Source of the DNA: a virus
Virus record (IMG/VR): IMGVR_UViG_3300045988_126429
Span: 1-63,439 of that record
DNA length: 63,439 nucleotides
Strand: one strand, 5' to 3'
Every line of letters starts with the position of its first letter. Within the stretch, counting starts at the first letter, position 1. A program made the translations under genes and the position numbers. Of this stretch, positions 1,329 through 43,260 are shown piece after piece. The notes beneath the pieces were generated by a model, which was given only the letters and a program-made list of their open reading frames with translations, had not been told where the DNA came from and did not search any database.

Positions 1329-1549
1329 GCTTTTTGTTCCTTTCTCTTTAACGGATTGTCCTGGCAGAAAATTTCGCCGCCTTCTTTTTTGATTTTTGCT
1401 TTGATTTCGGCAATAGCTTTATGCAGATAATAAACCTCACCGCTGTCATGATACATATTGATATAGAAATTTACTATTGTCGTAAAATATCTCTTATCTT
1501 TATCACGATTTGCACTTTCAGTGATTCTCGTAAGCTCTTTATCGTCCAT
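1325..1549 (-). CDS. hypothetical protein
   Basis: 74-aa ORF, GGAGGG RBS, overlaps the ssb start by 4 nt. Confidence 0.55.
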   Translation of the reverse strand: MDDKELTRITESANRDKDKRYFTTIVNFYINMYHDSGEVYYLHKAIAEIKAKIKKEGGEIFCQDNPLKRKEQKA

Positions 1550-1558
1550 AATTCCCTC

Positions 1559-2416: not shown

Positions 2417-2428
2417 GCTATCACCTCA

Positions 2429-3322: not shown

Positions 3323-3399
3323 GTCGCCCTCCTACAATAACTTCTTCCATAATGGTTGCCGTCTAAGTAACCTTACATACTTCATAAGTGCTTTCTTTC

Positions 3400-4071
3400 T
3401 CATGCAGTCTGCCCCATTTCTTCAAGTAAGGTCTTAATAGCCGTATGAGCAAGCGCATATTGAGGAATTGTAACCATTTTTTCAAGCTCTTCAATAGTCA
3501 AGTCCTTAATGTTTTTGTATGCAGCAAGCGGTCTGCCGTTCTTATCGTGACCATTAGCAACAGTTACAACAATCTCACCTTGAGGGGTAATCTTAACAAA
3601 TTTATCTCCGGTAGCTTGCGGTTGAGCTTTAGGCTTCTGCTCTGTGTTTTTGGCTTTAAAATCTTGCTTCGGTTCCGGTGCACAAGCTGAATTTCCGTCA
3701 TCGTCCTCTTGCGCAAGTCCAAGAGCCGCTGCAAGGCTGTATCTTCTAGCATATGTCAGCGTACTGCCAAAACCCTGGGCATCATTTTTCTGAATAGGAT
3801 AACTGCTCGTTACCTTAATAAATTGACCGCTGCTATGCATGATCAGTGTAGTAACAGCAAGCTTATTATTTTCTACAATTCCTTCGTTAGCCTGGAATAT
3901 ACTTAAGCCGTTCTTGCTAAGCGGCTCACGTGCTACGTTCAGGCATTCCGCTAAATCCGCATATTTGCTTTTAAAAAACGGATTGTCACAGCCTTTAACA
4001 GCATTTTTCATTTCGCCCTGAGCCTTTGCTAAAGATTCAGCCAAAGCGTCGATTTTTTCGCTCATTTCCAT
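3400..4071 (-). CDS. ERF-family single-strand annealing recombinase
   Basis: 223 aa; KSKYADLAECLNV...GSTLTYARRYSLAAALGL matches remembered ERF motifs. Confidence 0.8.
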   Translation of the reverse strand: MEMSEKIDALAESLAKAQGEMKNAVKGCDNPFFKSKYADLAECLNVAREPLSKNGLSIFQANEGIVENNKLAVTTLIMHSSGQFIKVTSSYPIQKNDAQGFGSTLTYARRYSLAAALGLAQEDDDGNSACAPEPKQDFKAKNTEQKPKAQPQATGDKFVKITPQGEIVVTVANGHDKNGRPLAAYKNIKDLTIEELEKMVTIPQYALAHTAIKTLLEEMGQTA

Positions 4072-4443
4072 TTAAATCACCTTTCCTTCCTTAACCAGCT
4101 CTTCAAGTCTGCTATGAAGCTTAAGAGTTGTTTCAGCATCCCAGTGACAGCATTCACGATAGCTGCCAACTTTAGGATATGTTTGCATATTCACCGACAA
4201 GCTGTTAACGTTATAGCTTAATACATCACCTTCACGCACAGCCTGTTTTTCCTGGTGGTATCCGAAGTGTTGATACTTACATTTGCCATCCCTGGTACAA
4301 TGTGCGCAAGTCTTAAAGTCTTTCAACCAGCTCTCTTTCGTCTGCTTCTGTTCGCCGTGCTTTCTTTTTCTAAAAGCTTCAAATCCTTCCATGCTAAGTC
4401 CGCTGCGAGCTAACACGGCGTTAACCTGTTCATTAGTTACCAT
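4072..4443 (-). CDS. hypothetical Cys/His-rich protein
   Basis: ORF 4072..4473; the internal ATG at 4443 lies 6 nt after AAAGGAGG; CAHCTRDGKC...CCHW. Confidence 0.55.
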   Translation of the reverse strand: MVTNEQVNAVLARSGLSMEGFEAFRKRKHGEQKQTKESWLKDFKTCAHCTRDGKCKYQHFGYHQEKQAVREGDVLSYNVNSLSVNMQTYPKVGSYRECCHWDAETTLKLHSRLEELVKEGKVI

Positions 4444-4642
4444 ATACATCCTCCTTTTGAATTCCGAAACCAAGCTTTAAATCAGCATAGGCTTTGACTA
4501 CTCTGCCTTGTGCAGTTGTATAGCCTTTTAGCTGAAGCTCTTTGTTCCATTCCCTTATAAGCGAGTAGCCTTTTCCAACGCCTACGCCTAAAAGGTTGGC
4601 AATGTCTTTAGCTGTGTAGAATCTGCTTTCCATGTTTGACAA
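4433..4642 (-). CDS. small HTH DNA-binding protein (excisionase/MerR-like)
   Basis: 69 aa; FYTAKDIANLLGVGVGKGYSLIREWN helix-turn-helix pattern. Confidence 0.5.
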   Translation of the reverse strand: MSNMESRFYTAKDIANLLGVGVGKGYSLIREWNKELQLKGYTTAQGRVVKAYADLKLGFGIQKEDVYGN

Positions 4643-4702
4643 CCTCTTTTCCGTATGCTATACTATATATGACCTATTTTTTAAACCGATTTCCTTTCGA
4701 CT

Positions 4703-5173
4703 TTATTTATAGGTTAAAGGCTCTCTATTAGCGTGGGGGGTCTTTTCTTTTTGCTCTTCTTCAATACCAATCAATACAAGTAAAGCCTGTGCACCTTCCC
4801 GGCATTCTTTTAAAAGACTGTCGCCTAGGTGCTTTTTTTGTACCGTTTTTGCTACCATTTGCGGAAACAATTCAACCACTTCTCCGACTTCTTTTTGCGC
4901 CCTCAACATATTCACTGCTAAATCATCAGCAGGAGGAATAAGTCCAAAAACGTCGCAGAACACAATGTTATTTTGCAGGTGCTGTACACGTAACCACGGT
5001 GTACGATAGAGTTTTGCCATTGCTAGTGCAATAACATCAGGGCATTGCCGCCAGTTAATCTCATAATCTTTCAAGCAGCTAGAAGAAATACCTAGTTTTT
5101 CTGCCGCCTTAACGCGGTTCAAACCTGCATATTCTCTAGCTGTTTTGTAGATATTAGTTTGAGTTTCAGACAT
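4703..5173 (-). CDS. HTH (XRE-like) regulator
   Basis: Start MSETQ 9 nt after GAAAGGAG; REYAGLNRVKAAEKLGISSSCLKDYE HTH. Confidence 0.55.
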   Translation of the reverse strand: MSETQTNIYKTAREYAGLNRVKAAEKLGISSSCLKDYEINWRQCPDVIALAMAKLYRTPWLRVQHLQNNIVFCDVFGLIPPADDLAVNMLRAQKEVGEVVELFPQMVAKTVQKKHLGDSLLKECREGAQALLVLIGIEEEQKEKTPHANREPLTYK

Positions 5174-5237
5174 CTTAAAAAACTCCTTTCTGGTATAATA
5201 CAAGTATGGCAGTTAACCAATCGTTATAAATCTGCCA

Positions 5238-5537
5238 TCATTGATTCTTCACTGTGTAGTAATTAACAGTGACTACATCTCCAGGCTGGAGATAACGGCG
5301 GTTGGCGGTCAGATGCTGGTTGTCTTTGCTCACGTTATACCAAAATTCATCGAAGCACATTCTTGTTTTGTTAAGCAGAAAATACTTATCAGCGATTCCA
5401 TACATTGTTTCGCCTTCCTGTACAACGTGTGTGATTGTATGCCTTTGCACCTGGCTGTCCGAAAATCCGCCAACTAAACTAAGGCAAAACCATGTCGCTG
5501 CAATCAAGCAGCAGACTTTGAATGTCTTAACTAACAT
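5238..5537 (-). CDS. membrane-anchored LysM-like protein
   Basis: N-terminal TM (CCLIAATWFCLSLVGG), then HVVQEGETMYGIADKY...LQPGDVVTV resembling LysM. Confidence 0.45.
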   Translation of the reverse strand: MLVKTFKVCCLIAATWFCLSLVGGFSDSQVQRHTITHVVQEGETMYGIADKYFLLNKTRMCFDEFWYNVSKDNQHLTANRRYLQPGDVVTVNYYTVKNQ

Positions 5538-5543
5538 TCTTTA

Positions 5544-5726
5544 TCACTCCTTTGTAGTAATTTCCAGCTTTTCTACTACCGTTAAGATTTTGTAATTTCC
5601 ATGACGATAGCAAGCCCAAAAGCACTTACATGCTTCAGTCTCGTTTCTTTCGGTAAAAATATCAAGTCTTACCTTACCAGTTTCCAAACTTTGAAAAACT
5701 ACTACCCAATCTTTACATTTATACAT
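5544..5726 (-). CDS. hypothetical protein
   Basis: 60-aa ORF with AAGGAGGG RBS. Confidence 0.5.
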   Translation of the reverse strand: MYKCKDWVVVFQSLETGKVRLDIFTERNETEACKCFWACYRHGNYKILTVVEKLEITTKE

Positions 5727-5741
5727 CTCTTCTTCCCTCCT

Positions 5742-5930
5742 TTACGCTTCCAAAAAGTAATCAACGCTTACGCCGAAGTATTCGGCGAGTTTTTGTAATG
5801 CTTCAACATTAGGTTTGTTTCTGCCATTTTTCCAAGTTGAAAAAGCTGAATTGCTAAGTCCTGTTGCCTTCGCAACTTGATAAGCAGTAACATTGTTTTT
5901 CTGCATTAATTCAGCAATTTTTCTATACAT
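5742..5930 (-). CDS. Cro-like XRE-family HTH repressor
   Basis: 62 aa; NNVTAYQVAKATGLSNSAFSTWKNGRNKP; divergent from the CI-like gene, which carries a near-identical HTH. Confidence 0.85.
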   Translation of the reverse strand: MYRKIAELMQKNNVTAYQVAKATGLSNSAFSTWKNGRNKPNVEALQKLAEYFGVSVDYFLEA

Positions 5931-5945
5931 TTCAGCACTCCTTTC

Positions 5946-5974
5946 TTGACGTTCAATTTTGAACGTGATATACT
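5946..5974 (+). promoter_or_regulatory. rightward promoter for the CI-like gene with an operator palindrome in the spacer
   Basis: TTGACG (5946-5951), 17-nt spacer, TATACT (5969-5974); the spacer holds GTTCAAttTTGAAC (5951-5964); the -35 abuts the cro RBS. Confidence 0.55.
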
Positions 5975-6045
5975 TTAATTGACAAATGTAGAATATAGTA
6001 AAGTGTTGTACATTTGTAGATGTTTTTATTTTACTTTCTAGTAAT

Positions 6046-6074
6046 ATTATACTACATTGTTCTACTTTTGTAAA
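6046..6074 (-). promoter_or_regulatory. leftward early promoter for the cro operon
   Basis: Minus strand TTTACA (6074-6069), 17 nt, TATAAT (6051-6046); same core as the three early promoter cassettes at 45.5, 48.5 and 52.8 kb. Confidence 0.6.
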
Positions 6075-6119
6075 GTAGTTTATTGCGTTTTTGTGAAATA
6101 TTTTGTCGAAATGAAATAG

Positions 6120-6515
6120 GTGAAAATGTACGAAAAATTTGAAATATTACTTAATTCAAAAGGTGTAACTGCATATCAGGTTGCCAAAGCAACGGGCGTT
6201 AGTAATTCCATGCTTTCATCATGGAAGAAAAATCGAACAACACCAAAAATGAATACGTTGCAGTTAATCGCCGATTATTTTAATGTCCCGGTGTCATATT
6301 TTTATAGTGACACAGAATATGCTCTCGGTGTAACAGAACAACAAGCAAAGTCCCTCGGCATAGACACTGAAGCAGTAAAGCAGCAGCTCAACGCCCAGCT
6401 TCTCGACGAACAGGCTATTGAGATTGCAAAACAGATTCAGAAGCTCGATGACACCCAAAAGATGGCTATCGAGCAAATTATAAAAGGGCTGTTGCAAGGC
6501 AAAGGCAAGGCCTGA
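6120..6515 (+). CDS. CI-like XRE-family repressor
   Basis: 131 aa (GTG 6120 or ATG 6126); KGVTAYQVAKATGVSNSMLSSWKKNRTTP HTH plus a C-terminal helical region. Confidence 0.85.
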   Translation: MKMYEKFEILLNSKGVTAYQVAKATGVSNSMLSSWKKNRTTPKMNTLQLIADYFNVPVSYFYSDTEYALGVTEQQAKSLGIDTEAVKQQLNAQLLDEQAIEIAKQIQKLDDTQKMAIEQIIKGLLQGKGKA

Positions 6516-6835
6516 CTTCCCCTTCGCCAGCATGGCATAATACCTTGCAATCTAAAGGAAGGAGGTTAAAACGAAGTCGATGTCATACCACTAACGAGTA
6601 TGCACAGCTGATTCGACAATTACCAACAGAGCATGTGTATTTTCTGCTACTCTGCATAGAAATTGCCAACCAACTGGTTGCAAAAAAAGCAAGCTGAAAC
6701 TGTAAAATGCGGACTTAACGATTCAACTTGATGTTAGGGGGATTCTCTTTAGGGAGCCATTTTGTAGAAGAACTACAGCGATAAGAGGGCGTATATGTCC
6801 GTCCTCTTTTTCGTGTACAGAAAAGAGGTTATACA

Positions 6836-7543
6836 ATGAAAAAATTCACAGTATTCATGCTGTTAGCACTTTGTTTGCTCACTGTTGCCTGCGGTGGTCC
6901 TTCAGCTAAAGAAGAAGCAGAACGGTTGCATAAAGACCACACGCTGGCTACAAGAGTGATTTGGAACGATAATTTTGTTCCTAAATTGAAAAAAATTCAT
7001 AACGAATTACCGGAAGATAAAAAGGATGCAGAAGCAGCTAAACTAGCAGAAGAATACAAGCCGAAATTAGAAGATGCATACAAAAAAATTCAAGCTGAAA
7101 AAGTTCAAGACAAAAACAAACATCTTGCGGAGCTGATTCAGCAGCAAGATAAAAACTCGCTAGAATTTTTAAATTTGCTAATAATGCTCAACGATAAGCA
7201 GAATCTAAAAGAGCAAAACTGGCAGCAAGATTTCGCAAACGTAACAATGAGCTTGTTTAACACTAAATTAGAATATGACAACGAATATTCTAAAATCACT
7301 ACCGGGAAAGGCACTTATGAATTAACATTAGCCAACTTCCAAAAAATCCATAAGGGAGATACATATCAGAAAGTTGCTGAAACATTCAAGATGCCCGGCG
7401 TTTTAAAAAGCTCAAGTTCATCTCAGCTTAGCTACGGACTTCACACCCTTAATACATGGGAATGGGAGCTTAATGATTCCAGGGTTAGTATAATTTTTGA
7501 AAATAATAAGGCAGAATTAATTCACCAATTCAATTTAAAGTAA
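6836..7543 (+). CDS. lipoprotein (candidate superinfection-exclusion/moron protein)
   Basis: MKKFTVFMLLALCLLTVAC: signal peptide with lipobox LTVAC; lies between repressor and integrase. Confidence 0.75.
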   Translation: MKKFTVFMLLALCLLTVACGGPSAKEEAERLHKDHTLATRVIWNDNFVPKLKKIHNELPEDKKDAEAAKLAEEYKPKLEDAYKKIQAEKVQDKNKHLAELIQQQDKNSLEFLNLLIMLNDKQNLKEQNWQQDFANVTMSLFNTKLEYDNEYSKITTGKGTYELTLANFQKIHKGDTYQKVAETFKMPGVLKSSSSSQLSYGLHTLNTWEWELNDSRVSIIFENNKAELIHQFNLK

Positions 7544-7578
7544 CAGACTATTCCCCTAGCCTGTTAAAAAAAATCACT

Positions 7579-7600
7579 AGCAGGCGTAAAGCCTGCTTTT
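7579..7600 (+). terminator. intrinsic terminator after the lipoprotein gene
   Basis: AGCAGGC-gtaaa-GCCTGCT followed by TTTT. Confidence 0.6.
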
Positions 7601-7864
7601 GTGCTTTTTGAAATAAAAAAGGCTTGAAAAACAGTCTGAACATAAAATCCCAGGTTGCTTTTCAAGCCAGCGTTTTTATACAGTTTATATTACTATTTTT
7701 ATAGATTAAAAATCTTATCAGAGCTTCATATTTAGCTTATATGAGCATTTAATTTTTACTAATATAAATATAAGCAGAAGCCTTGAAAAGTCGCTTATAA
7801 GCTAAATACTAAAGAGAATTTTTAGCGTTTTTGGCAAAAATTTACATGAAAGGAGCTGCAGAAC

Positions 7865-8974
7865 ATGACAGTAACAAAAAATCTGAAAACAGGAAAATGG
7901 GACTGTGCTTTTTGGTATAAGGATTGGCAAGGCGTACGCAAACATACAACAAAAAGAGGTTTTGACAAAAAGCGCGATGCTGAAAAATACGAAAGCGATA
8001 TGAGAAACAAAACTCATACGCATGATCCGAAATTCAGTGAAGTTATTGCAGCATACCGGGAAGAGCTGGACAGCAAACTAAAGCTAGGAGAATTAAAGCA
8101 ATCGACAGTTGACGGGAAAATCCAGGCATTGGAATATTACGTTCTCCCCTTCTTCGAAAATATGAACGTCGATAAAGTTACTCCGCTTCAAGTTATGCGT
8201 TGGCTTGCACTTCAAAATGAGAAATCAGAAAAAGAACGTCTTTCAAGCAGACTGCTAAACCGCATTCGCTCAGAGCTGAACCAGGTATTTGAATTCTCAA
8301 AAAGAAACTTCGGGACAAAAAATAACCCTGTCACTCTAACCGACAGGGTAAAGCCATATTCCAACGATACACGTGCAAAGTTATGGACAGTTGAACAGTA
8401 TAAAGTTTTCTATGATGATATTGAGATAGCTTCGCATAGGGTGCTATTCAATATCATCTTTTGGGCAGGCTTGCGAATAGGTGAAGTTTTGGCACTAAAA
8501 ATCGAGGATATATCTCCATATAAAATTCACGTTGACAAATCACTCATGAGGATAAACAATAAAGACGAATACGTCATCAGCACAACCAAGACAAGAAGCT
8601 CCGTTCGTGATGTTGAGATACCGAAATACCTCTATCATCAAATCATGGACTACATAAGCACCCTTTACAAGGTCAAAGCCGAAGATTATATCTTTGACGG
8701 CATAAAGCCGACGGCTATCAGAACATATATGCGCTATCACTGCATTAAGTTAGGCTTGCCAAGAATCAGCCCTCATATTCTCCGGCACAGCTATGCTTCC
8801 ATGCTTTACGCAACTACCGGAGATATTTTGGCAGTCGCTGAACAGATTGGTCACGCAGATACAAATACAACCTTTAAATTTTATGCTCACATGATGCCTG
8901 AAGCTAATAGAAAGGCTGTCGACAAATTAGAGAGCTTAACTGTGGATAACTTGCCCCAAAATAGCGAATTTTAA
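7865..8974 (+). CDS. int: tyrosine recombinase / phage integrase
   Basis: 369 aa; GLRIGEVLAL, HILRHSYASML and GHADTNTTFKFYAHMM (R...HxxR...Y); N-terminal arm-binding-type region KTGKWDCAFWYKDWQG. Confidence 0.92.
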   Translation: MTVTKNLKTGKWDCAFWYKDWQGVRKHTTKRGFDKKRDAEKYESDMRNKTHTHDPKFSEVIAAYREELDSKLKLGELKQSTVDGKIQALEYYVLPFFENMNVDKVTPLQVMRWLALQNEKSEKERLSSRLLNRIRSELNQVFEFSKRNFGTKNNPVTLTDRVKPYSNDTRAKLWTVEQYKVFYDDIEIASHRVLFNIIFWAGLRIGEVLALKIEDISPYKIHVDKSLMRINNKDEYVISTTKTRSSVRDVEIPKYLYHQIMDYISTLYKVKAEDYIFDGIKPTAIRTYMRYHCIKLGLPRISPHILRHSYASMLYATTGDILAVAEQIGHADTNTTFKFYAHMMPEANRKAVDKLESLTVDNLPQNSEF

Positions 8975-8975
8975 T

Positions 8976-8998
8976 TTTTGGAACTCATTTTGAACTCA
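8976..8998. repeat. 23-bp direct repeat copy 1 (candidate integrase arm-type sites, attP region)
   Basis: ttttggaactcattttgaactca; copy 2 at 9166..9188 differs at one base; each copy has two GAACTCA units. Confidence 0.6.
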
Positions 8999-9012
8999 TT
9001 CGATAAAAAAAG

Positions 9013-9054
9013 AACCGCCAAACCCCATGAATACTAGGGTTTAGCGGTTTTTGT
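9013..9054 (+). terminator. intrinsic terminator after int
   Basis: aaccgccaaaccc / gggtttagcggtt stem followed by ttttg. Confidence 0.65.
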
Positions 9055-9165
9055 TTATAGTCCCTTTTACTGATTTTACCAAATCAGCCACTTTTTTGCA
9101 AGTGTTTTTTTACTGCATAGTGCATATCTTTTCGTTTATTTTTTTCATTTTTTTAGTTGCTTTTA

Positions 9166-9188
9166 TTTTGGAACTCATTTGGAACTCA
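9166..9188. repeat. 23-bp direct repeat copy 2 (attP region)
   Basis: ttttggaactcatttggaactca, 22/23 identical to 8976..8998. Confidence 0.6.
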
Positions 9189-9193
9189 CAAGC

Positions 9194-9226
9194 AAAAAAG
9201 CAGGCTGACTAAACCTGCTTTTTTTA
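9194..9226. terminator. bidirectional hairpin terminator
   Basis: AAAAAAGCAGG-ctgactaaa-CCTGCTTTTTTT: A-run and T-run flank the stem. Confidence 0.55.
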
Positions 9227-9292
9227 GCCGTATGTAATAGTAAGAAGATAATTGAGATACCGAAATGGAAACAAATTCAAACTCTTAAATAG

Positions 9293-9326
9293 AAAAAGAC
9301 ACTTGCGCAAACGCAGATGCCTTTTT
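9293..9326 (-). terminator. terminator closing the minus-strand accessory operon
   Basis: Minus strand aaaaaggcatctgcgtttgcgcaagtgtcttttt: imperfect hairpin plus T-run, about 110 nt after the stop of 9435..9896. Confidence 0.5.
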
Positions 9327-9434
9327 CCATAACTAGAACACATCTACAATGTTGGCTAGACACTTAATGAAAGACGTGAACTATTACTAGCATATATATA
9401 ATATACCATTTTATTTTTTTTAGCAATTAGAAAA

Positions 9435-9896
9435 TTATTGTCTTTCCTTTGCTCTCATTTGAGCTACCCATAAGTCAAGGACTTTTCCGCTAGGAGCATC
9501 AGGGTCACACATATAAGCTTTAGCAATCTTGACAAGTGTTCCGGTATCACCGCTGAACACTGCACCATAATCACTATACACCATATTCAGCACATAATAC
9601 CAATCAGCTTTATGCTTGATATTATGCTGCTCTGCAAGTTGATTGGTCTGCTCATACGTCCAATGCTCACCATTAGTGCCATCCGTGTTCTGCATCTTGC
9701 TAACTGCAAGCTTTGCAAGTGCTTCGTCAAAGTGAGGGCCATAGGCTACGCAGTGCAGGTCATACAACGTGCGATAAAAAAGGTCTGGGCAATGCATCTT
9801 AAGCTTTTCTAATGCACTGCAAACAATTTCTTCCATTGCTCTCTCTTTTGTATCATCACCTATAATCTTGTTCCAATACTCTTTATAGGAGTGCAT
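9435..9896 (-). CDS. hypothetical protein
   Basis: ATG at 9896 lies 5 nt after AAGGAGGTG; 153 aa with no family I can name. Confidence 0.6.
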   Translation of the reverse strand: MHSYKEYWNKIIGDDTKERAMEEIVCSALEKLKMHCPDLFYRTLYDLHCVAYGPHFDEALAKLAVSKMQNTDGTNGEHWTYEQTNQLAEQHNIKHKADWYYVLNMVYSDYGAVFSGDTGTLVKIAKAYMCDPDAPSGKVLDLWVAQMRAKERQ

Positions 9897-9908
9897 AACC
9901 ACACCTCC

Positions 9909-10343
9909 TTACGCAAGCTTAACCACGCTAATAGCTGCCCTGTTAATTGTTGCCGCTGCCGTTGCCTGTACCTGTAAACTTGTTATGTTGTTTACTGCAC
10001 AGCAAGAAGGACGAACACGAATCAGCGTAGTAAAAGAAATATTCACAGCTGTGTCAGCAACGCCAGTAACAATGCTTTCCGCACCATTAATAACAGAAGA
10101 TGTGCTTTCCGTGGTACTCAGAAGCTGTAAGCCAACATTGCCAGCAGCAGCAGGAACAACATCAGCATTTACACTGACAAGGTACAGGCCACGAATCAGG
10201 CTAACACTAGAGCTTCCAGCAGGATGCTTAATAGCAACGCCAGTCAGAAGATTATTTATAGGAAAGCTAACAAAAGCATTAGCTGCAACAGACTGAGCAG
10301 CAACAGCCGCAGCGTTCAAAGAAGATTTTTCGTAGCAAATCAT
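9909..10343 (-). CDS. C1q/TNF-like (BclA C-terminal-domain-like) protein
   Basis: 144 aa; pattern FPINN...HPAGSSSVSLIRGLYLVSVNADV...LQLL...VINGAES...ISFTTLIRV...ISVVKLA resembles the BclA-C jelly-roll; no collagen repeats. Confidence 0.4.
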   Translation of the reverse strand: MICYEKSSLNAAAVAAQSVAANAFVSFPINNLLTGVAIKHPAGSSSVSLIRGLYLVSVNADVVPAAAGNVGLQLLSTTESTSSVINGAESIVTGVADTAVNISFTTLIRVRPSCCAVNNITSLQVQATAAATINRAAISVVKLA

Positions 10344-18142: not shown

Positions 18143-18721
18143 TTACAATTCTATGTTGTCGAGTTCAAAAACAGTTTTGCAAGCTTCTACTTCAGCCTGT
18201 TTTTTCCATCCTTCTTGCTTGCAACCTCCTATATGCATTGACAAATCAGCCATCCATTTCATGACCTGCGACGGATTAAGCCAAAATACAGATTTGCTGT
18301 TCTGCCCGTCAGCAACTCCGCGCACCGGGCAACCTGCAGGATATTTTTCCGCAAATTGTTCCGTGTTTACATTAAGAGCAATCCCTTGCATAGTAAGCTG
18401 AGTATCTACATCACTGTCATAGGTGACTTTTTTTCCACTTGCTTCACTAACAAAACCTCCAGTAATTTTACTTGCAGTCCACTCATCAATCTCTTTCAGT
18501 TTAAGTTTCTTTTGAAATGCTAAAATAAGTTCCTCATCATCTTTTGGGAAAACAACATCACCATTTTCATCAAGAGAAAAATCGGTGGGAGTAGCAGAAG
18601 AACTAATATTTTTAATAACATACTCGTCAACACCATTATCCATGCCTACAATATAGTTTTTCAAAGAATCTTCGGAAGCACTAATAGCAATACCTTTTTT
18701 GTTTTTAAACAAATAAAACAT
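18143..18721 (-). CDS. hypothetical tail-fibre-module protein
   Basis: 192-aa ORF, AAGAGGTGA RBS; position between fibre genes. Confidence 0.5.
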   Translation of the reverse strand: MFYLFKNKKGIAISASEDSLKNYIVGMDNGVDEYVIKNISSSATPTDFSLDENGDVVFPKDDEELILAFQKKLKLKEIDEWTASKITGGFVSEASGKKVTYDSDVDTQLTMQGIALNVNTEQFAEKYPAGCPVRGVADGQNSKSVFWLNPSQVMKWMADLSMHIGGCKQEGWKKQAEVEACKTVFELDNIEL

Positions 18722-18734
18722 TTATTTCACCTCT

Positions 18735-19319
18735 TTAATACTTAACGCCATAAATTTCAATAATAGAGCAGTTTTGAGTTTCAGTGTACCAAATAGTATC
18801 TGTCGAAAGAGGATGAGTAGTTGTTCCAGATTGTACTCCCGAATACAGTAACCAATAAATAGAGTCAGTGTTCAAAAGATTAAAATAAGACCCCTCAGAA
18901 AATGCTTTTTGTAATTCCCAAACATCCCACAAAGTGTATTTTGAACTATTACCTCTATCATCATTGCCAACCACCAAAATCTTATCATACAGTGTGTAAG
19001 ATTCTTTAAGCATTATTGTGCTTGGCATGTTGTCACTTCCACCAGATGTTGTCGGGAAAGAAGCATCACCACCATAAGCTTTGATTCCTGTACCTGTATT
19101 AATAATATTTCTTACATCTGTACCGCCATTTCTTGTTTTCATTGTGTCCCAATCAATCAACGCTACAAGGGTAGGTGTAGTGTTTCCTGCTAATTTGTCG
19201 AGCAAATCAGTCTTAACAAAAGCAAAATCATCACTCCCTACACTAGAGATATTTTTATTGAAACTGTTATAACTAGGAAATACATGAATTTTATCTAACT
19301 TACCTGTTGTACTTGCCAT
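18735..19319 (-). CDS. hypothetical tail-fibre-module protein
   Basis: 194-aa ORF, AAGGAGGT RBS. Confidence 0.5.
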   Translation of the reverse strand: MASTTGKLDKIHVFPSYNSFNKNISSVGSDDFAFVKTDLLDKLAGNTTPTLVALIDWDTMKTRNGGTDVRNIINTGTGIKAYGGDASFPTTSGGSDNMPSTIMLKESYTLYDKILVVGNDDRGNSSKYTLWDVWELQKAFSEGSYFNLLNTDSIYWLLYSGVQSGTTTHPLSTDTIWYTETQNCSIIEIYGVKY

Positions 19320-19331
19320 TTTTTTACCTCC

Positions 19332-19535
19332 TTATAAATCACTCACCGTTGCAGTCAACTCATTAATATCAGTGCCCCAACTAAATGTAACCCCATCAAC
19401 AGAATCAGAAATATTAAGGGTCAGATTATACGTTTTCCCCGATGTAACAGCAACTATACTGTGCATGTCTTGATGGTCGGAGTTACCTTCATCCTCAAAA
19501 CGGGAGTCACTATACCCACTGCCCCATATTTTTTT
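19332..19535 (-). other. -1-frame C-terminal extension of the glycine-rich fibre gene, entered at an A7 run
   Basis: A AAA AAA at 19535-19529 in the 0 frame; the -1 frame stays open for 65 codons (IWGSGYSDSRFEDEGNS...TFSWGTDINELTATVSDL*) and ends 12 nt before the next ATG. Confidence 0.5.
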
Positions 19536-21094
19536 GTACTGTTGTTTATAACAGAAATTGCATAGCTATCCTCCTCTTCAAGTGGCGCATCCGCTGTTAA
19601 GCAATCTGCATCAACTTTAATTTTTGTAATACCAATTGGAACAGTAAAGGATGTAGAGGTTTCAGAAGAACTAAAGTGCTTTTCTCCTGTTATTACAGAT
19701 ATAAATTTCACTTCTAGCACTTCTATTGCCCCGTATTGCACGTTATATACCGCAGTATGTAAAACTCCACTACTATCAATATATTCAAATGTAAGCTTCT
19801 CTTTACTACCCCATGTTTTAAAGGACAGAGAGAATACCCCTAATTGATTAGTATGGTGTGTTTCTCCATTAACTGTAACTGTGCTTCCCATAATAGCATT
19901 ATCATCTAAATAGCATCTACACGTCAATTCAGCTTTTTTATTTACTGTAGGTATATATGGTGTTGTTCCATCGTATTCAATAATAACAAAACCTTGTGTT
20001 CCGTCGCTTACTCTATATCTAAATGCACGGTCATTGTCATTACTATAAAAGGTATTTTTACCACCTGCGCCTACAACAATCTGAATAGTGCTGTTAGGAG
20101 TTACTTCAACCTCTGCATCTACAATAAATGCACCACTATTTCCTGCGACACCAATTTGATTAGAAGTTCCGTCAGTGTCATAAAAATGATAAGAGCCACC
20201 ACCTGCACCATAGATGTTAAACGATTCAAAAGTTCCTGTAGGTGCATATGTTACGCTATCTTTAGTTCCAAGCACATCAGCATAGTAATACCCAACCTTT
20301 CCCATTACGTCTGCTAAAGTAGCAATACCATTCTTGTTAAGTAAAAAACCATATCCATGTACAGTAAAGTCTCTATTTCTAGCGGTAACATATTCCCCTC
20401 TTACACCATTTTTAGAAGCAACAGGCTGATTAACAGTCATTACATTACCACTTCTTAAAGTAGCAGTTGCACCTTGTCCTCCGGGGATAACATAACTGCC
20501 AACTTTCGTATCTCCGCCGTTTCCTGCTTGCATATCCAACGTGGGGCAGGAATTATAAGCACCAACAGTAATACCGCCTGCTCCACCACCACAACCAGTA
20601 ACATATAATTTTGTAATTCTAGCAGGGATTCTCAAACTGTAAGTACCTACATTTTTATAGACAAGCCTTGTACGCTTTAACGTAACTACATCTTTATACA
20701 GTAGATACTTTGAGCCGTCTTTTTTTTGCATCTCAAAAACAGTTTTCGGAATGCTACTCATTTTTTGGGAATACTTATCTTTATCAACCTTATAAGATAA
20801 AATGCAAAATCCGTCTACACCGTTACCGCCTGTACTGCCTTTCGTAGAACTCGACTTACCAACAGGAGAACCACTATCAGCATAGTTGGATGTATTGCTC
20901 GCATTATAAATTCCACCTCTAGCAGTTACACCTAATGCAGAAGAATCCTCTCCTGTTGTACCATAAACATAGTTAGAATTATTGGCTGTTACACCCTTGC
21001 CACCTTTTCCACCAGCACCAATAGTAATAGTGTACTGTGTTCCAGGTATAACACTAATAACTCTTGTTACACGTTCTCCATAACCTATAGTCAT
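19454..21094 (-). CDS. glycine-rich-domain tail fibre protein (C-terminal portion of a split gene)
   Basis: Start MTIGYGE after AAAGAGGTGA; begins mid-domain (RVTRVISVIPGTQYTITIGAGGKGG...GGNGVDGFCILSY), then an intact copy VGTYSLRIPARITKLYVTGCGGGAGG...GFVIIEYDG. Confidence 0.75.
   Translation of the reverse strand: MTIGYGERVTRVISVIPGTQYTITIGAGGKGGKGVTANNSNYVYGTTGEDSSALGVTARGGIYNASNTSNYADSGSPVGKSSSTKGSTGGNGVDGFCILSYKVDKDKYSQKMSSIPKTVFEMQKKDGSKYLLYKDVVTLKRTRLVYKNVGTYSLRIPARITKLYVTGCGGGAGGITVGAYNSCPTLDMQAGNGGDTKVGSYVIPGGQGATATLRSGNVMTVNQPVASKNGVRGEYVTARNRDFTVHGYGFLLNKNGIATLADVMGKVGYYYADVLGTKDSVTYAPTGTFESFNIYGAGGGSYHFYDTDGTSNQIGVAGNSGAFIVDAEVEVTPNSTIQIVVGAGGKNTFYSNDNDRAFRYRVSDGTQGFVIIEYDGTTPYIPTVNKKAELTCRCYLDDNAIMGSTVTVNGETHHTNQLGVFSLSFKTWGSKEKLTFEYIDSSGVLHTAVYNVQYGAIEVLEVKFISVITGEKHFSSSETSTSFTVPIGITKIKVDADCLTADAPLEEEDSYAISVINNSTKKYGAVGIVTPVLRMKVTPTIKTCTV
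21074..21084. repeat. 11-bp direct repeat, downstream copy, flanking the radical-SAM cassette
   Basis: Minus strand GTTATGGAGAA, read in frame as (G)YGE in the 546-aa ORF; identical to 22193..22203. Confidence 0.9.
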
Positions 21095-21096
21095 TT

Positions 21097-22161
21097 CTAC
21101 ATCACCTCTTTTATTGCTCCCCAAAATTCTCGCAAGTAATCACAATAACATAATTCACCATCTTTCTGCACTGCAATGGGACAAATGCAACGGCAAATAT
21201 CCAAATGCTCGCAAGTTTTGCATTTAACAGGCAGAAGTTCCTCAAAAATTTTTCTATGTTTTTCTTGCAACTCTATAAAGTTATCTGTAATATAACCCAC
21301 AATTCTATCAGTATTGTGACACAGCATAACTTCTCCATTAAAATTTACACTAAGACTTACAATAGCAGGACGGCAAGGGGGATATGGATATTCATAAAAT
21401 TCTTCTTTATCAAAATTCCTTACACGCAAAATTTTTGAGAAAAACCAATGTCTTGCATAAGGTGCAATTTTACTATCAGAATTAGCAAATAACCACAAAT
21501 TCTTAACCGCTTTTTTTATTACACTAGGCTCAAATTGGTATAGGTCAAGTGGTGTATGCTCACTCAACACATTAATAAACCCACAAGTAATTTCTGTTTC
21601 GGGGAAAGTGTAATGTAGCCAATCAAAAGCTTCTACCATATTGTCATTAATAGCACTAAAAACAGTATTAACCGTTCTTTTTCTTATACGTAAAAACTTT
21701 TTGCAGGCTTCTTTACTAGGGACTGCATTTCTCGCCGCTCTTGCGTTTGGCGCATCATAACTCATAATAAACCAAATATTATTCTCATTACAGAAGTCAA
21801 CTATCTCATCATTTAAAAGCAATCCGTTACTAAAAATCCTATAGCTAACATTCTTTACACCGTTTTTCTTAAATTCAAGCACAAGCTTCTTAATGGTTTC
21901 CCAATAAAGTAAAGGTTCTCCACCCCAAAAATATAATCGGCGAGGATTATTTTCAGCGTACTTCCAAGGCAGGTTACTCCACATAACTATAAAGTCTTTA
22001 ACATCTTGTGATAACTCTTTTCCATGTGGAGAAAGATTAAAGCAACTTTTAATAGGTGTTTGAACACAATGCCTACATGACATATTACAAGCAGCCCCAA
22101 GTAAAAGATAAATAGCACCCAGGTCATTAAGGTCATGTATTTCTTCGCTAAAGTTTTTCAT
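21097..22161 (-). CDS. radical SAM enzyme with C-terminal SPASM-type Cys cluster
   Basis: CNMSCRHC (CxxxCxxC), GGEPLL, C-terminal CRP...NGEVMLCHN...CKTCEHLDICRCICP; start ATG 22161 (alternative 22200). Confidence 0.85.
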   Translation of the reverse strand: MKNFSEEIHDLNDLGAIYLLLGAACNMSCRHCVQTPIKSCFNLSPHGKELSQDVKDFIVMWSNLPWKYAENNPRRLYFWGGEPLLYWETIKKLVLEFKKNGVKNVSYRIFSNGLLLNDEIVDFCNENNIWFIMSYDAPNARAARNAVPSKEACKKFLRIRKRTVNTVFSAINDNMVEAFDWLHYTFPETEITCGFINVLSEHTPLDLYQFEPSVIKKAVKNLWLFANSDSKIAPYARHWFFSKILRVRNFDKEEFYEYPYPPCRPAIVSLSVNFNGEVMLCHNTDRIVGYITDNFIELQEKHRKIFEELLPVKCKTCEHLDICRCICPIAVQKDGELCYCDYLREFWGAIKEVM

Positions 22162-22168
22162 ACGCACT

Positions 22169-22360
22169 TTAGTTGCCTTCGCCGCCACTGCCTTCTCCAT
22201 AACTGCCGCCCCCACTTCCACTATTATTTCTGTTTTTGCCACGACCACCAGCTCCTGCTCCCGAAATTTCTACTGTAATTTCAGTAACACCTTCGGGAAC
22301 AGTAAATGTATAAGTTCCAGCATTGCTCCATGATGTAACTACATCTACTTTATCAGCCAT
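22169..22360 (-). CDS. 63-aa glycine-rich ORF: N-terminal fragment of the glycine-rich fibre domain and/or precursor-like peptide
   Basis: AAGAGGT RBS; AGTYTFTVPEGVTEITVEISGAGAGGRGKNRNNSGSGGGSYGEGSGGEGN*; parallels the start of the intact domain in 19454..21094. Confidence 0.65.
   Translation of the reverse strand: MADKVDVVTSWSNAGTYTFTVPEGVTEITVEISGAGAGGRGKNRNNSGSGGGSYGEGSGGEGN
22193..22203. repeat. 11-bp direct repeat, upstream copy, flanking the radical-SAM cassette
   Basis: Minus strand GTTATGGAGAA, read in frame as (S)YGE in the 63-aa ORF. Confidence 0.9.
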
Positions 22361-22370
22361 AATATACCTC

Positions 22371-22793
22371 TTATTCTGTATAGGTAATCATCGTTACGCC
22401 TATACTATCAATGCCAAGATTTTTTCTTGCAGCTTCAGGAGTTGTAGCTCCTGTGCCACCATTAGCAATAGGCAATGCACCGTCTGTATTGCCCAAACCT
22501 AAAACATTGCGAACGCCAGCAACAGTAGTTTGCCCGGTGCCACCACCAGCAATAGGAAGAACCTTAAATTTTGCGTCACCGCACAATGCCATGTCCTGCT
22601 TTCCTGCCGCTGGAATAGGAACAAGTCCCGCTTTGCCAGCGGCGTTAGATGTTGCCCCTTCCATATTAGCAATATTGACATTGCCTTTAGAATCGGGTTT
22701 TGCGCCATTAACCGAACGAACAAATTTTGCTTTTATTTGTCCTAAAAAATAGCTTAATCCGTCAAGGTCAATTAATTTTTGCAAGTTAGCCAT
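22371..22793 (-). CDS. tail fibre protein (GGTG repeat type)
   Basis: 140 aa; IAGGGTGQTTVAGVRNVLGLG and IANGGTGATTPEAARKNLGI motifs typical of phage fibre N-terminal regions. Confidence 0.65.
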   Translation of the reverse strand: MANLQKLIDLDGLSYFLGQIKAKFVRSVNGAKPDSKGNVNIANMEGATSNAAGKAGLVPIPAAGKQDMALCGDAKFKVLPIAGGGTGQTTVAGVRNVLGLGNTDGALPIANGGTGATTPEAARKNLGIDSIGVTMITYTE

Positions 22794-23242
22794 TATGCCA
22801 GCTCCTTTGTAATCAAATTCTGAATTTCAGATTCAGTTGCCGTCTTCAGCTTGTAAGCCCTGGGAATAACTTCCCAGGTTACTGAGCCGTCGGTATAAGT
22901 TGCTCCGAGCACAGCTTCACGAAAATCTGGTTCACTTACAGCCGTATCGCCGCCAACAGTACATGCTAAGACAAGACTTTTAGGCAAGTTAGGTGACAAT
23001 ACGATGTCACCATTAACATAAGATGTATTGTTCTTGCGAATGTTTAAGCTGTTAAAAAGGTACTGACTTTTTAAATCACTCACATTCTGTAATTTGTTAA
23101 AGTATTCAAGCGGCGGCGCTTCTCCTTTGTCAAGATAGCCCCAACCACGCAGGTAATCAAGCTCAGGCCAAGAATCAATCATCTCACCAATGCTTGCGCT
23201 ACTACCAAAAATCAAATCAAAAGTAGGCTGTTTCATTACCAT
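22793..23242 (-). CDS. baseplate/tail-fibre-proximal protein
   Basis: 149-aa ORF directly after the gpI-like gene. Confidence 0.45.
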   Translation of the reverse strand: MVMKQPTFDLIFGSSASIGEMIDSWPELDYLRGWGYLDKGEAPPLEYFNKLQNVSDLKSQYLFNSLNIRKNNTSYVNGDIVLSPNLPKSLVLACTVGGDTAVSEPDFREAVLGATYTDGSVTWEVIPRAYKLKTATESEIQNLITKELA

Positions 23243-23928
23243 TATTCAACAAGTCCCCCTTTCACCTTTATAATCCTTGCGAATGTTCCTTGATTAAATC
23301 CTTTAAATCTATAGGGATTTTCTCCGCTTCTACTAAAACCGAACGTATTCGCAGCATCGAACGAATATACATAAATAACGCCGATACCTGCGCCACGGAT
23401 AATAAGGTTCAGTGCATCAATCAAACGGCTTTCCTTGCTGGTTACTACGCGCCCTATTCCTATGCGCATTTTAGCATTTCCTGCATTAACAGCGGAAACG
23501 CGTTCGACATTAAAAACATTCTTTATACTATGTATTGTGCTAACGCGAGAGCAGTCAGTCGTGTTTTTCTCAATTTTAGAGATAACAGCAAGACGGTAGT
23601 GCTGGTCGTTCAAGTCGCTGGATGCAAGATAATTATCATACATACGTCTAAACGGAGCTTGTCCGAATCCCATGTTGCCATGATCGGGAAAGCCAAAAAA
23701 ATCCATTGCAATAGCGTTTTCAACACGGCGAGAAATATCAGCGACTTCACCGCACATATCAAGCTGCTTACCAACTGCCGTATCTGGCCATATCTGTGTC
23801 CTTATCTGCTCCCTTACTTTATCTATGCTGTCGAGTTCGTTTCCGACGGCATTAAGAAAAGCTTTAATGTTGGGTTTGTTACGAAACTGACTTAACAAAT
23901 GGTTATACATTCTTTCGCTTGTAGTCAT
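23242..23928 (-). CDS. baseplate wedge protein (gpI-like)
   Basis: 228 aa; LLSQFRNKPNIKAFLNAVGNELDSI...AVGKQLDMCGEVADISR pattern; follows the baseplate J gene. Confidence 0.6.
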   Translation of the reverse strand: MTTSERMYNHLLSQFRNKPNIKAFLNAVGNELDSIDKVREQIRTQIWPDTAVGKQLDMCGEVADISRRVENAIAMDFFGFPDHGNMGFGQAPFRRMYDNYLASSDLNDQHYRLAVISKIEKNTTDCSRVSTIHSIKNVFNVERVSAVNAGNAKMRIGIGRVVTSKESRLIDALNLIIRGAGIGVIYVYSFDAANTFGFSRSGENPYRFKGFNQGTFARIIKVKGGLVE

Positions 23929-23930
23929 GA

Positions 23931-25346
23931 TTACAACTCCAAAGCTACAGTAACATTAGCAAGTTTTGTTACTGCCAGCTCATTACGTTCAATCGAAATA
24001 TTTTCCTGTTTATACGTTTGACCGTCTTTAGACACGCTGCACTCAATATAGCTAATGCCGTCAACGCCGCTGTAAATAGGACCAAGAAAACGCTGATAAA
24101 TAACATCATTACCCATCGACAGTTTGCCAATCTGTTTGACAACGATATTTTTAATTTTGTCGATTGCGTCACCGGGTAAAATTTCCTCATTATATTCTTT
24201 AATGATAACTTTAACATAAATTTGTACCTCGTGCGGACGGCTAAAGCATACATCTTGCGCTGCACCCTCGCTATCCTCAATGCGAACGCAAATATCGCCG
24301 TTCGTATCAATGCCTAAAGGTGCGACATTCAAGATTGTACGTGCAATAGCTTCTTCGTCACCGCCGAAAACAATAGCTTGAAAGGAATGAGGTTTTAAGC
24401 CATCAACTGTTTCATCAGTGCGGTTTTCATAAATAGTTACGCTGGTAACATCCTGCAATTCAAGCAAGGCAGCCTTAATACTTTCTTTCATTCCTATGCT
24501 GTTTCTGAACACTGCAGACGCATAACGCTGACGAACTTCGGATGCTGTTTCGTAGTCACGACCTACATATGTTTCAGATTCGTTGTTAACAGAAAACCAG
24601 CCGTCATAATTTGTGTTGATATAATTCACGCTATTTAGCAAAGGTTCGATTTCTCCGTATTCTTCACAGTCAAAACGAATAGGACTTCCAACCTGCGTTA
24701 CTACAAATGATTCATTAGGCACAACCACAGCTCCATATCGCCTGTCAGAGCGTTCAAAAACCAGCTTGCCTTCAACAATACTGCCTTGCCACTTTTCAAG
24801 GCTCTGAGAAGCCAAGGCAACAGCGACATTTAACGCAGTATCATTTTCTTGCGCTGTATATTTTATAACTGCATCATTATCAAACTGCACACTGTAAACT
24901 TTTCCTTTAGCTGGCGTTTCAACTTCCAGGGTTACATGCACGCAGTCATTAAGAGTGATCGTGCTTTCTTCAATAATATTCCATTTGTAGCCAGAAGCAT
25001 CTTTAATTTGGCAGTTAGCAGGAAGAACCATTCCGCTGCGTCCATAACAAACAGCATAGAGATAGCTTGCCTGAGCTTTCTTGCGCTGCACATTGGTGTA
25101 AGCAAGCGTATTATCTAAACTGCCTTCGCTGGCACTAATCGGCGAACGGTCATAATAATCACGCTCTAAAAGCTGCCACATTCGGTCAAGCTCAGCAGCA
25201 TACACACCAACAAGAACGCCTATCATGCTGTTAGGCTGACGGCTAACTGTCGAGCCTAAATTTTGCTCCAAGCTTTTAAAAATATCTTCTCGAATCTCCG
25301 GCAAACGCTTTCTAACAAAACCGTTAACTGTTACTCCGTACTCCAT
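23931..25346 (-). CDS. baseplate J-like protein
   Basis: 471 aa; size, position and N-terminus (VTVNGFVRKRLPEIREDI) typical of the gpJ/gp47 family. Confidence 0.7.
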   Translation of the reverse strand: MEYGVTVNGFVRKRLPEIREDIFKSLEQNLGSTVSRQPNSMIGVLVGVYAAELDRMWQLLERDYYDRSPISASEGSLDNTLAYTNVQRKKAQASYLYAVCYGRSGMVLPANCQIKDASGYKWNIIEESTITLNDCVHVTLEVETPAKGKVYSVQFDNDAVIKYTAQENDTALNVAVALASQSLEKWQGSIVEGKLVFERSDRRYGAVVVPNESFVVTQVGSPIRFDCEEYGEIEPLLNSVNYINTNYDGWFSVNNESETYVGRDYETASEVRQRYASAVFRNSIGMKESIKAALLELQDVTSVTIYENRTDETVDGLKPHSFQAIVFGGDEEAIARTILNVAPLGIDTNGDICVRIEDSEGAAQDVCFSRPHEVQIYVKVIIKEYNEEILPGDAIDKIKNIVVKQIGKLSMGNDVIYQRFLGPIYSGVDGISYIECSVSKDGQTYKQENISIERNELAVTKLANVTVALEL

Positions 25347-42940: not shown

Positions 42941-43259
42941 ACACGGCAACATTCCCTTCGCTTTCCTGTACCGACACCTTAACGCAGTGCGGAACTTTTT
43001 CGCAAATCCAACGAGCAATGTTTTCTGCTGTCGGATTGCATTGTAACACGTCGTTTAAATATTGATGGTCAAGCATATCAGAAACAAGGTTTTTAATATG
43101 CTTGAAATCTACTACCATGCCGTTAGCGTCTAAGGTTTCGCTTTGGCAAGTTACGCAGATAATCCAATTATGGCCATGTAAATTTTTGCACTTACTTTCA
43201 TAATTTAAAGAAAGTTGGTGTGCTGCCGAAATTTCTAATCGTTTTGTTACTGTATACAT
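42930..43259 (-). CDS. queD: 6-carboxy-5,6,7,8-tetrahydropterin synthase
   Basis: 109 aa; EISAAHQL...CKNLHGHNW...VVDFKHIK motifs. Confidence 0.88.
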   Translation of the reverse strand: MYTVTKRLEISAAHQLSLNYESKCKNLHGHNWIICVTCQSETLDANGMVVDFKHIKNLVSDMLDHQYLNDVLQCNPTAENIARWICEKVPHCVKVSVQESEGNVAVYEI

Positions 43260-43260
43260 A

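Follow-up and report, generated by a model that had tools for sequence, protein, structure and literature searches.

A stretch of viral DNA of 63,439 nucleotides (nt; positions 1 to 63,439 of IMG/VR record IMGVR_UViG_3300045988_126429, hereafter the window) encompasses a tail-fiber module in which a gene for a radical S-adenosylmethionine (SAM)/SPASM enzyme of 354 amino acids (aa; 21097..22161) is preceded by an open reading frame (ORF) of 63 aa (22169..22360) and followed by the gene for a glycine-rich distal fiber protein of 546 aa (19454..21094); all genes of the module are on the minus strand. We examined this locus by comparative sequence analysis, drawing on metagenomes. A first-pass annotation, made from the nucleotide sequence alone, described a short, Cys-less ORF with its own ribosome-binding site (RBS), followed by an enzyme with the CxxxCxxC, GGEPLL and SPASM motifs, between tail-fiber genes; all these features are indeed present.

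The 63-aa ORF is preceded by AAGAGGT, 7 nt 5' of the ATG, contains no Cys and ends in ...GRGKNRNNSGSGGGSYGEGSGGEGN (also written ...GSGGGSYGEGSGGEGN), finishing with GEGSGGEGN. The homologs of this ORF fall into 32 clusters, every one in the range of 59 to 69 aa, and the codon variants in its first 36 codons among 14 relatives are 21 synonymous versus 4 non-synonymous, which argues that it is a real gene. The ATG at 22161, within 10 nt past the stop of the 63-aa ORF, is kept in sister phages, with a variable spacer before it, and is most likely the start of the enzyme; a longer start at GTG 22248 was discarded as an artifact of ORF calling. The 546-aa fiber ORF probably starts at the ATG at 21094, which lies 3 nt past the enzyme stop and has an RBS, AAAGAGGTG, in front of it.

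The split Gly_rich_2 domain

The 63-aa ORF matches positions 3-41 of the Pfam profile PF21722 (Gly_rich_2; 226 positions) with 22.5 bits, which on its own is below the cut-off of 24.3, and the 546-aa ORF matches positions 43-129 with 39.5 bits, above the cut-off, the match starting at residue 17. The two ORFs share a reading frame and are separated by 1236 nt; their coverage of the profile is complementary, and taken together they correspond to one contiguous domain. Three parts can be distinguished in the 63-aa ORF, namely, beta-strands 1-2 of Gly_rich_2 (TYTFTVPEGVTEITVEISGAGAGG), a hypervariable linker (aa 40-54) and a conserved C-terminal tail, G55-E-G-S-G-G-E-G-N63 (22172..22198). In the 546-aa protein, residues 1 to ~115 complete the split Gly_rich_2, and another Gly-rich domain, which is not interrupted, spans residues ~135-390. 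The start of this intact domain (aa 135-165) can be aligned with the 63-aa sequence, which also matches interior regions of PHROGs tail proteins 195-924 aa in length. These alignments indicate that the 63-aa ORF comprises the first ~40 positions of Gly_rich_2 and is not a free-standing precursor gene; given the complementary profile coverage, the enzyme gene sits inside the domain-coding sequence, in the first glycine-rich loop. Gly_rich_2 is split at this same loop (profile positions ~37-43) in the clade of the window and in three other phage lineages, denoted here by their locus handles L111, L005 and L189.

Several explanations of the split through known types of insertion were considered and rejected. 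An 11-nt direct repeat, GTTATGGAGAA, with copies at 21074..21084 (minus strand) and 22193-22203, flanks the unit of tail, enzyme gene and restart codon; the copies, which are in frame, are spaced by 1119 nt (373 codons), and the sequence is found only twice in the window, with 0.05 occurrences expected by chance. Although significant in the window, the repeat is not kept in sister phages of 89-95% identity, so that it was dismissed as a target-site duplication and its meaning is uncertain. A group I or group II intron or an intein was rejected because Rfam yields no match at gathering thresholds in this region, the enzyme ORF takes up 1065 of the 1119 nt, so that a ribozyme could not be accommodated, and the reading frame of this ORF differs from that of the flanking ORFs. 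A search for an unsplit, empty-site allele found none: the IMG/VR fiber search gave 10 relatives, all 10 with the enzyme gene, and the first 140 aa of the C-terminal fragment, used as the query in a protein search, produced only 3 short matches, an uninformative result in this respect.

The arrangement resembles the genes-in-pieces produced by free-standing mobile genes, such as mobE, which splits nrdA in Aeromonas phage Aeh1: there, too, an extra ORF is located inside a gene, and the two halves, each an ORF of its own owing to a newly acquired stop and start, presumably reassemble. The window differs from the mobE/nrdA case in that the insert is not a homing endonuclease but a radical-SAM enzyme, the new C-terminus carries a conserved motif under selection, and no intact allele was found among the 10 relatives. 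An origin of the homing-endonuclease type was rejected, given that the inserted ORF shows radical-SAM domains only and that the insert is present in 10 of the 10 close fiber relatives.

Linkage of the C-terminal tail to the enzyme family

The neighborhoods of enzyme homologs (35-100% identity) were examined in 12 phage lineages that include myoviruses, podoviruses, P2-like phages and phages of ~100 kb. In all 12, the enzyme recurs beside a tail-module ORF with the same Gly-rich C-terminal tail, ending in one or two [S/C]-G-(G/S)-(G)-E units; this ORF stops at, or no more than 10 nt from, the enzyme start, except in the L002 clade, where it lies one gene further upstream. The tails are GEGSGGEGN in the clade of the window, GGEGSGGEG in L111, GEGSGGEGA and GSGGEGSGGEA, respectively, in the podovirus-like L005 and L189, which have Head-tail_con and T7_gp14 neighbors, GSGGEGSGGEGG in the P2-like prophage L191, GEGSGGEGA in the phages of ~100 kb (L002/L029/L030), GEGSGGEGSGGE in L031/L113, SSCGSEGGCGGGEA in L036-41, which combine the backbone of the window with a different fiber module, SSGCGGEGG in L042 and GCYDSGGEG in L192; tail-enzyme pairs are also present in L190 and L112. 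In other phages, the tail is carried by proteins of 172-595 aa, among them the N-terminal portion of a nozzle protein of podoviruses: the split gene of L189 contains the Pfam Phage_nozzle domain, and the gene layout of L005 is alike.

The motif is rare outside this context: it occurs in the last 12 aa of 72 among the 4695 ORFs in all the DNA fetched, and 63 of these 72 are followed by an enzyme of the family within 2.2 kb. In the reverse test, a degenerate DNA pattern for GEG-S-GGEG plus stop gave 12 matches in IMG/VR, 6 of which are known loci; the other 6, located in GC-rich contigs, are chance frames that have no enzyme in their vicinity. Distant members of the enzyme family, at 33-36% identity (L193, L194, L001), occur in tandem-rSAM (radical-SAM) or cellular clusters without the tail; therefore, the linkage is limited to the phage tail-module subfamily. 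In the distant cellular branch represented by L001, six tandem paralogs are followed by a 53-aa peptide ending in GCPEQVPGCCCGCGSQ, a layout that reads as a classical precursor with a C-terminal core. This cluster (L001 7515-17178) resides in a low-GC (27.6%), cellular-looking contig with rnpA and rpmH nearby and encompasses a split or degraded radical-SAM gene, the six intact tandem paralogs, the Cys/Gly-rich 53-aa peptide and a TupA-like ATP-grasp protein; it appears to be an uncharacterized multi-radical-SAM cluster for a ribosomally synthesized peptide with post-translational modifications (RiPP).

The core unit of the tail is S-G-G-E. In the alignment of the homologs of the 63-aa ORF within the clade of the window, G-E-x-S-G-G-E is invariant, while the linker before it is hypervariable in both sequence and length. 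The Gly and Ser codons of the tail differ among lineages, with Ser encoded by AGT, AGC, TCT or TCC, and the peptide is constant; this synonymous variation, including the switches between AGY and TCN, shows that selection acts on the tail peptide rather than on the DNA. The variability of the linker (22199-22243, minus strand) is apparent even among relatives that are otherwise 85-95% identical, and the number of GEGSG/SGGE units varies among relatives as well; repeat slippage in the Gly codons is suggested as the source of both.

The Ser of the unit is replaced by Cys in some of the lineages. The carrier proteins of L036 and L191 are 48% identical (E 1e-52) up to PYD-x-S, after which the tails diverge, into a Cys-type tail in L036 (PYDDSSCGSEGGCGGGEA) and a Ser-type tail in L191 (PYDVSTGSGGEGSGGEGG); judging from this alignment, these homologous carriers differ only in the type of the tail. 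Cys-type tails read C-G-S-E, C-G-G-G-E, C-G-G-E or C-S-V-D, and Cys-x2-3-Glu was found only in the relatives L036, L042 and L192. In L002, the two domain halves abut, with an ATGA overlap, and the enzyme gene follows both of them. Because the halves remain split there even though they do not flank the enzyme gene, a free tail seems to be required, and the tail would be a selected feature, not merely an insertion scar.

Two further observations concern the pairing of fibers with radical-SAM genes. In the ~105-kb phage L002 (region 7225-9957), a second radical-SAM protein (335 aa) is encoded directly after another fiber protein, one that ends in ...GSYDDYGGDS; the similarity to the enzyme family is distant (27% identity over the N-terminal half), and the pairing may thus extend beyond one enzyme family. 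Comparison of L036 (IMGVR_UViG_3300045988_090788, 1410-7000) with the window (18143-25346) reveals the same baseplate genes combined with an alternative distal-fiber module, in which a 201-aa Ig-like carrier with a Cys-type tail accompanies an enzyme that is just 38% identical; this looks like host-range module swapping in which the tail-plus-enzyme pair is kept.

The enzyme and its genomic context

The enzyme contains the radical-SAM motif C25-x3-C29-x2-C32 and the sequence FWGGEPLL; C25, C29, C32 and G80-G81-E82 are invariant among 44 sequences, and the Pfam Radical_SAM profile (PF04055) matches with 32.1 bits, above the cut-off of 29.5. The SPASM pattern is complete: C263-x12-G276-x4-C281, C314-x2-C317-x5-C323-x3-C327 and C340 conform to the seven-Cys signature (CX9-15GX4C ... 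CX2CX5CX3C ... C) of two auxiliary 4Fe-4S clusters, each of these residues being either invariant or conserved in at least 90% of 44 homologs. The TIGR04085 (SPASM) profile scores 25.9 bits against a cut-off of 27, and PF13186 gave no match at E <= 0.01. We assign the enzyme to the radical-SAM superfamily and, on the basis of motif and fold, to the SPASM group. The enzyme has no N-terminal RiPP recognition element (RRE) domain, given that only 16 residues precede the first strand of the radical-SAM core.

The AlphaFold2 model of the enzyme (pLDDT 93) has its nearest folds, according to Foldseek, in the anaerobic sulfatase-maturating enzyme (anSME), CteB, ChlB, TigE, SuiB and SkfB, and the nearest solved structures in a profile search of PDB are TigE (4e-28) and CteB (8e-22). 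The NCBIfam matches are to peptide- or protein-maturase models only, all far under their cut-offs; PapB is the only model that aligns over its full length (residues 44-356 to profile positions 3-316 of 330). By profile and fold, the enzyme falls among SPASM enzymes that modify peptides and proteins, with no gene for a sulfatase or cofactor substrate nearby; by curated thresholds, it is outside the anSME, PapB, CteB and TigE families. The wider family consists of 315 representatives at E <= 1e-30 and is annotated in PHROGs only as "radical SAM domain-containing protein". Fusion proteins, considered as a clue to the substrate, proved unhelpful: those in the wider family are all double radical-SAM fusions, and none includes a fiber.

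For SPASM enzymes that lack an RRE, two chemistries are pertinent, namely, the cross-linking of Cys to Asp or Glu side chains (PapB, QhpD) and the conversion of Cys or Ser to formylglycine (anSME). The best structural match is anSME (anSMEcpe, PDB 4K36-4K39; Foldseek E 7e-13, TM about 0.6), which is similar to the window enzyme in size (~370 aa), in the absence of an RRE and in the presence of two auxiliary clusters, and which acts on a whole protein, not a small peptide, as proposed below for the window enzyme. The target residue of anSME may be Cys or Ser, and this acceptance mirrors the Ser/Cys alternation of the phage tails. Nevertheless, the window enzyme is not an anSME: TIGR03942 scores 37.9 against 349.45 bits, the C/S-x-P/A-x-R motif is absent, there is no sulfatase gene nearby, and the proposed target is the C-terminal tail of a phage tail protein. 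PapB and QhpD join Cys to Asp or Glu side chains a few residues away, and the Cys-type phage tails likewise place Cys 2-3 residues before an acidic residue (C-G-S-E, for example); furthermore, QhpD, from the quinohemoprotein amine dehydrogenase system, also modifies a protein subunit. The differences are the scores (49 versus 340 bits for PapB, NF047865, and 49 versus 453 for QhpD), the lack of a multi-repeat peptide precursor, and the Ser in the Cys position of the Cys-less window tail, which would call for an ether or other chemistry; membership in the PapB type was rejected on the score and the lack of Cys.

The class of enzymes that includes TigE acts on repeated short Gly-containing motifs. 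TigE (PDB 8VPO, cyclopropylglycine synthase) and CteB (5WGG, sactisynthase) match the window enzyme across both the radical-SAM and the SPASM domains, but both possess an N-terminal RRE or leader-binding domain of ~90-100 aa that is missing in the window enzyme (the alignments start at residues 103 and 89, respectively), and the tail has neither a Val for cyclopropanation nor a Cys for a sactionine bond. A paper citing 8VPO concerns radical-SAM cyclopropyl synthases joining geminal methyls of valine (PMC10878394).

The genes around the split domain match tail-fiber PHROGs, DUF4376 and Baseplate_J. Ahead of the 63-aa ORF, a 140-aa proximal tail-fiber protein (22371..22793; PHROGs 5481, 10316 and 11393) is an anchor or shaft piece, and its homologs also precede the tail-bearing ORF in L036 and L191. 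On the other side, the 546-aa gene is followed by a 194-aa ORF (18735..19319) with no family match in Pfam and PHROG profile searches, the N-terminus of which resembles the ORF located directly after the enzyme gene in L036 and L191 (BLASTP E 6e-05, aa 8-35). The module closes with a 192-aa DUF4376/tail-fiber-type protein (18143..18721; phrog_1348, 5e-14; PF14301, 22.6 bits, just under the cut-off), and a DUF4376-type ORF also follows the module in L002, L036 and L191.

The window is a temperate myovirus-type gut phage or prophage that encodes an integrase, a large terminase, a tape measure protein, Baseplate_J and a set of FolE, QueE-like and QueC proteins; Megablast of the region against GenBank phages gave no match. 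The host probably belongs to Acidaminococcaceae, because contigs of close relatives are binned to Phascolarctobacterium and a 46%-identical enzyme is encoded in the isolate genome Succiniclasticum ruminis DSM 9236, which contains the prophage L113; we take Phascolarctobacterium and Succiniclasticum to be members of this family. The 7-deazaguanine/queuosine-type gene set adjoins the terminase (41719-43950, minus strand) and consists of the genes for GTP cyclohydrolase I (41719-42294) and QueC (43261-43950) and, between them, a gene for a second small radical-SAM protein (42287-43018), the position of which is QueE-like; an ORF with a ParB_N domain is located at 44808-45296. The set suggests modification of the phage DNA. 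In addition, two Type-P5 twister ribozymes (51714-51772 and 52535-52593, both on the minus strand), ~820 nt apart, flank small ORFs of the early region, with scores of 48.3 and 45.4 bits against an Rfam gathering threshold of 37.6.

Possible modification of tail proteins

The joint travel of the tail and the enzyme across many unrelated phages suggests an undescribed enzymatic modification of tail proteins, and we favor, with moderate confidence, the interpretation that a dedicated maturase modifies the C-terminal tail of the tail protein. The enzyme would be made from the same late tail-fiber operon as its target, the flexible C-terminal tail of the upstream ORF (here, ...GEG-S-G-G-E-GN of the 63-aa fragment), from which the 5'-deoxyadenosyl radical would take a hydrogen atom. 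The side chain of Ser or Cys could then be joined to the Glu two or three residues downstream, producing an ether or thioether ring, or else, Ser or Cys could be oxidized to formylglycine. The invariant S/C and E at a fixed spacing, flanked by Gly, are compatible with both chemistries, each of which amounts to a loss of 2 Da and which are not separable from sequence. The modified 63-aa fragment might pair with the 546-aa fragment by beta-strand complementation, as the complementary Pfam coverage of the two fragments implies, so that the split Gly_rich_2 would be rebuilt.

This interpretation is consistent with the split at one point in L005, L111 and L189 along with the intact second copy of the domain in the 546-aa protein, with the linkage in all 12 lineages and the rarity of the motif elsewhere, the peptide-level selection and the seeming equivalence of Ser and Cys in the tails of L036 and L191, with the persistence of the split in L002, and with the complete radical-SAM and SPASM motifs of an enzyme whose nearest solved relatives are all peptide or protein modifiers and whose only full-length NCBIfam alignment is to PapB. 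The precursor-like layout of the distant L001 cluster points the same way. Several points weigh against it. The support is wholly comparative and metagenomic, and the enzyme passes no curated subfamily cut-off (the PapB, anSME and SPASM scores given above). The window tail lacks Cys, and therefore the thioether chemistries of sactipeptides and ranthipeptides cannot apply as such. The purine-rich tail codons (GGN GAR GGN) could form a Shine-Dalgarno-like signal that explains part of the conservation, the enzyme could act elsewhere on the fiber, in which case the tail would be no more than a docking peptide, and the proposed reassembly of the N- and C-terminal fragments depends on Pfam coverage.

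Docking or assembly as the function of the tail belongs to a broader alternative, which we consider unlikely, whereby the target is something else, such as Gly-rich loops in the downstream fragment, a different tail protein or a molecule of the host. Such a target would accord with the co-transcription of the enzyme with several Gly-rich proteins, with the lack of Cys in the window tail and with the activity of RRE-less SPASM enzymes, such as anSME, on whole proteins; however, the tail is the sole feature common to the 12 contexts. The downstream genes vary, from a second Gly-rich half to an unrelated ORF of 136-152 aa or, in L031, a membrane-protein-like ORF, a probable holin, and the N-termini of the downstream fragments have no conserved residue in common. 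Conservation of the tail mainly as a translational-coupling or Shine-Dalgarno element, with the radical-SAM gene as an unrelated passenger (a moron or auxiliary gene), strikes us as quite improbable. Admittedly, GGN-GAR-GGN yields GAAGG or GAGG just 5' of the next start in every arrangement, including that of L002, in which a gene other than the enzyme comes next, and the stop and start overlap as ATGA or TAATG at several loci. Yet Ser is retained through the AGY-to-TCN switches, the G-E pair upstream, at 20-25 nt from the start, is conserved, GAAGG is 14 nt from the ATG in the clade of the window, some tails gain extra SGGE units, and a passenger would not be expected to hold its position across myo-, podo- and P2-like phages.

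A rather doubtful possibility is that a selfish mobile cassette, consisting of the tail codons, the stop, the radical-SAM gene, an RBS and a restart codon, enters loops rich in Gly codons by microhomology; host genes would be split, and the tail would be only the 5' end of the element, with no role in the fiber. The position of the enzyme gene within the domain at one loop in four lineages, the occurrence of the unit in different host genes (fiber, podovirus nozzle, Ig-like protein), the in-frame 11-nt repeat that brackets exactly this unit in the window and the variable copy number of GEGSG are all in line with such a cassette. Against it, the ORF, which accounts for 1065 of the 1119 nt, has no nuclease, transposase or recombinase domain and keeps all catalytic Cys across 35-100% identity, the tail is selected at the amino-acid level, none of the 10 fiber homologs has an empty site, the repeat is missing in sister phages, and the L002 split stays although the enzyme gene is not between the halves; mobility of the module is, in any case, compatible with tail modification by a dedicated maturase. 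The least credible alternative is a classical RiPP locus, with the 63-aa ORF as the precursor of a small released peptide (a bacteriocin or a signal) carried by the phage. The short ORF with a core-like C-terminal tail next to a SPASM enzyme fits this scheme, and the distant L001 cluster resembles a true RiPP cluster, but the 63-aa ORF is a fragment of a structural domain, the carriers elsewhere are structural proteins of 172-595 aa, including the nozzle N-terminus, and no protease, exporter (transporter) or immunity gene was found among the neighbors.

Thus, the locus would work like a RiPP pair of a C-terminal core and a maturase, with adjacency conserved in 12 of the 12 phage lineages, yet it falls outside the definition of a RiPP locus, which includes a small dedicated precursor, an RRE and a protease or exporter. 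The first-pass annotation had tied the SPASM maturase to a Gly-rich peptide and raised the possibility of fiber modification on the model of a RiPP locus: the linkage holds across the 12 lineages, whereas the small diffusible precursor does not, and neither does the view of the 63-aa ORF as a stand-alone precursor, given the split Gly_rich_2, the larger carriers and the lack of an RRE, protease and exporter. It had also pointed to the Cys of the large fiber as a potential partner; in L005, there is no Cys in the Gly-rich portion of the downstream fragment, and an intermolecular thioether between a fiber Cys and a tail Glu is accordingly not supported.

We also entertain, as a long shot, a more specific role, in which the modification covalently staples the halves of a deliberately split tail protein (fiber tip or nozzle) or equips the receptor-binding tip with a reactive aldehyde or a macrocycle that participates in host attachment; virion assembly would then incorporate radical-SAM chemistry as one of its regular steps. 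The known substrates of radical-SAM/SPASM maturases are small RiPP peptides and a few enzymes (sulfatases and amine dehydrogenase among them), and no description of a radical-SAM enzyme associated with phage tail proteins was found in full-text searches of the literature. If the favored interpretation is correct, this SPASM maturase family is dedicated to virion tail proteins and represents a new class of post-translational modification in phage structural biology, with potential effects on the binding of receptors, on stability in the gut or on the assembly of tails. The split domain would be a natural case of a protein cut such that an internal loop becomes an enzyme-accessible terminus. Furthermore, a short portable tag ([S/C]GGE at the C-terminus) and a compact, RRE-less partner enzyme would be defined, a pair that could serve as a tool for protein engineering, and the alternation of Ser and Cys could point to a rare ether- or formylglycine-forming chemistry.

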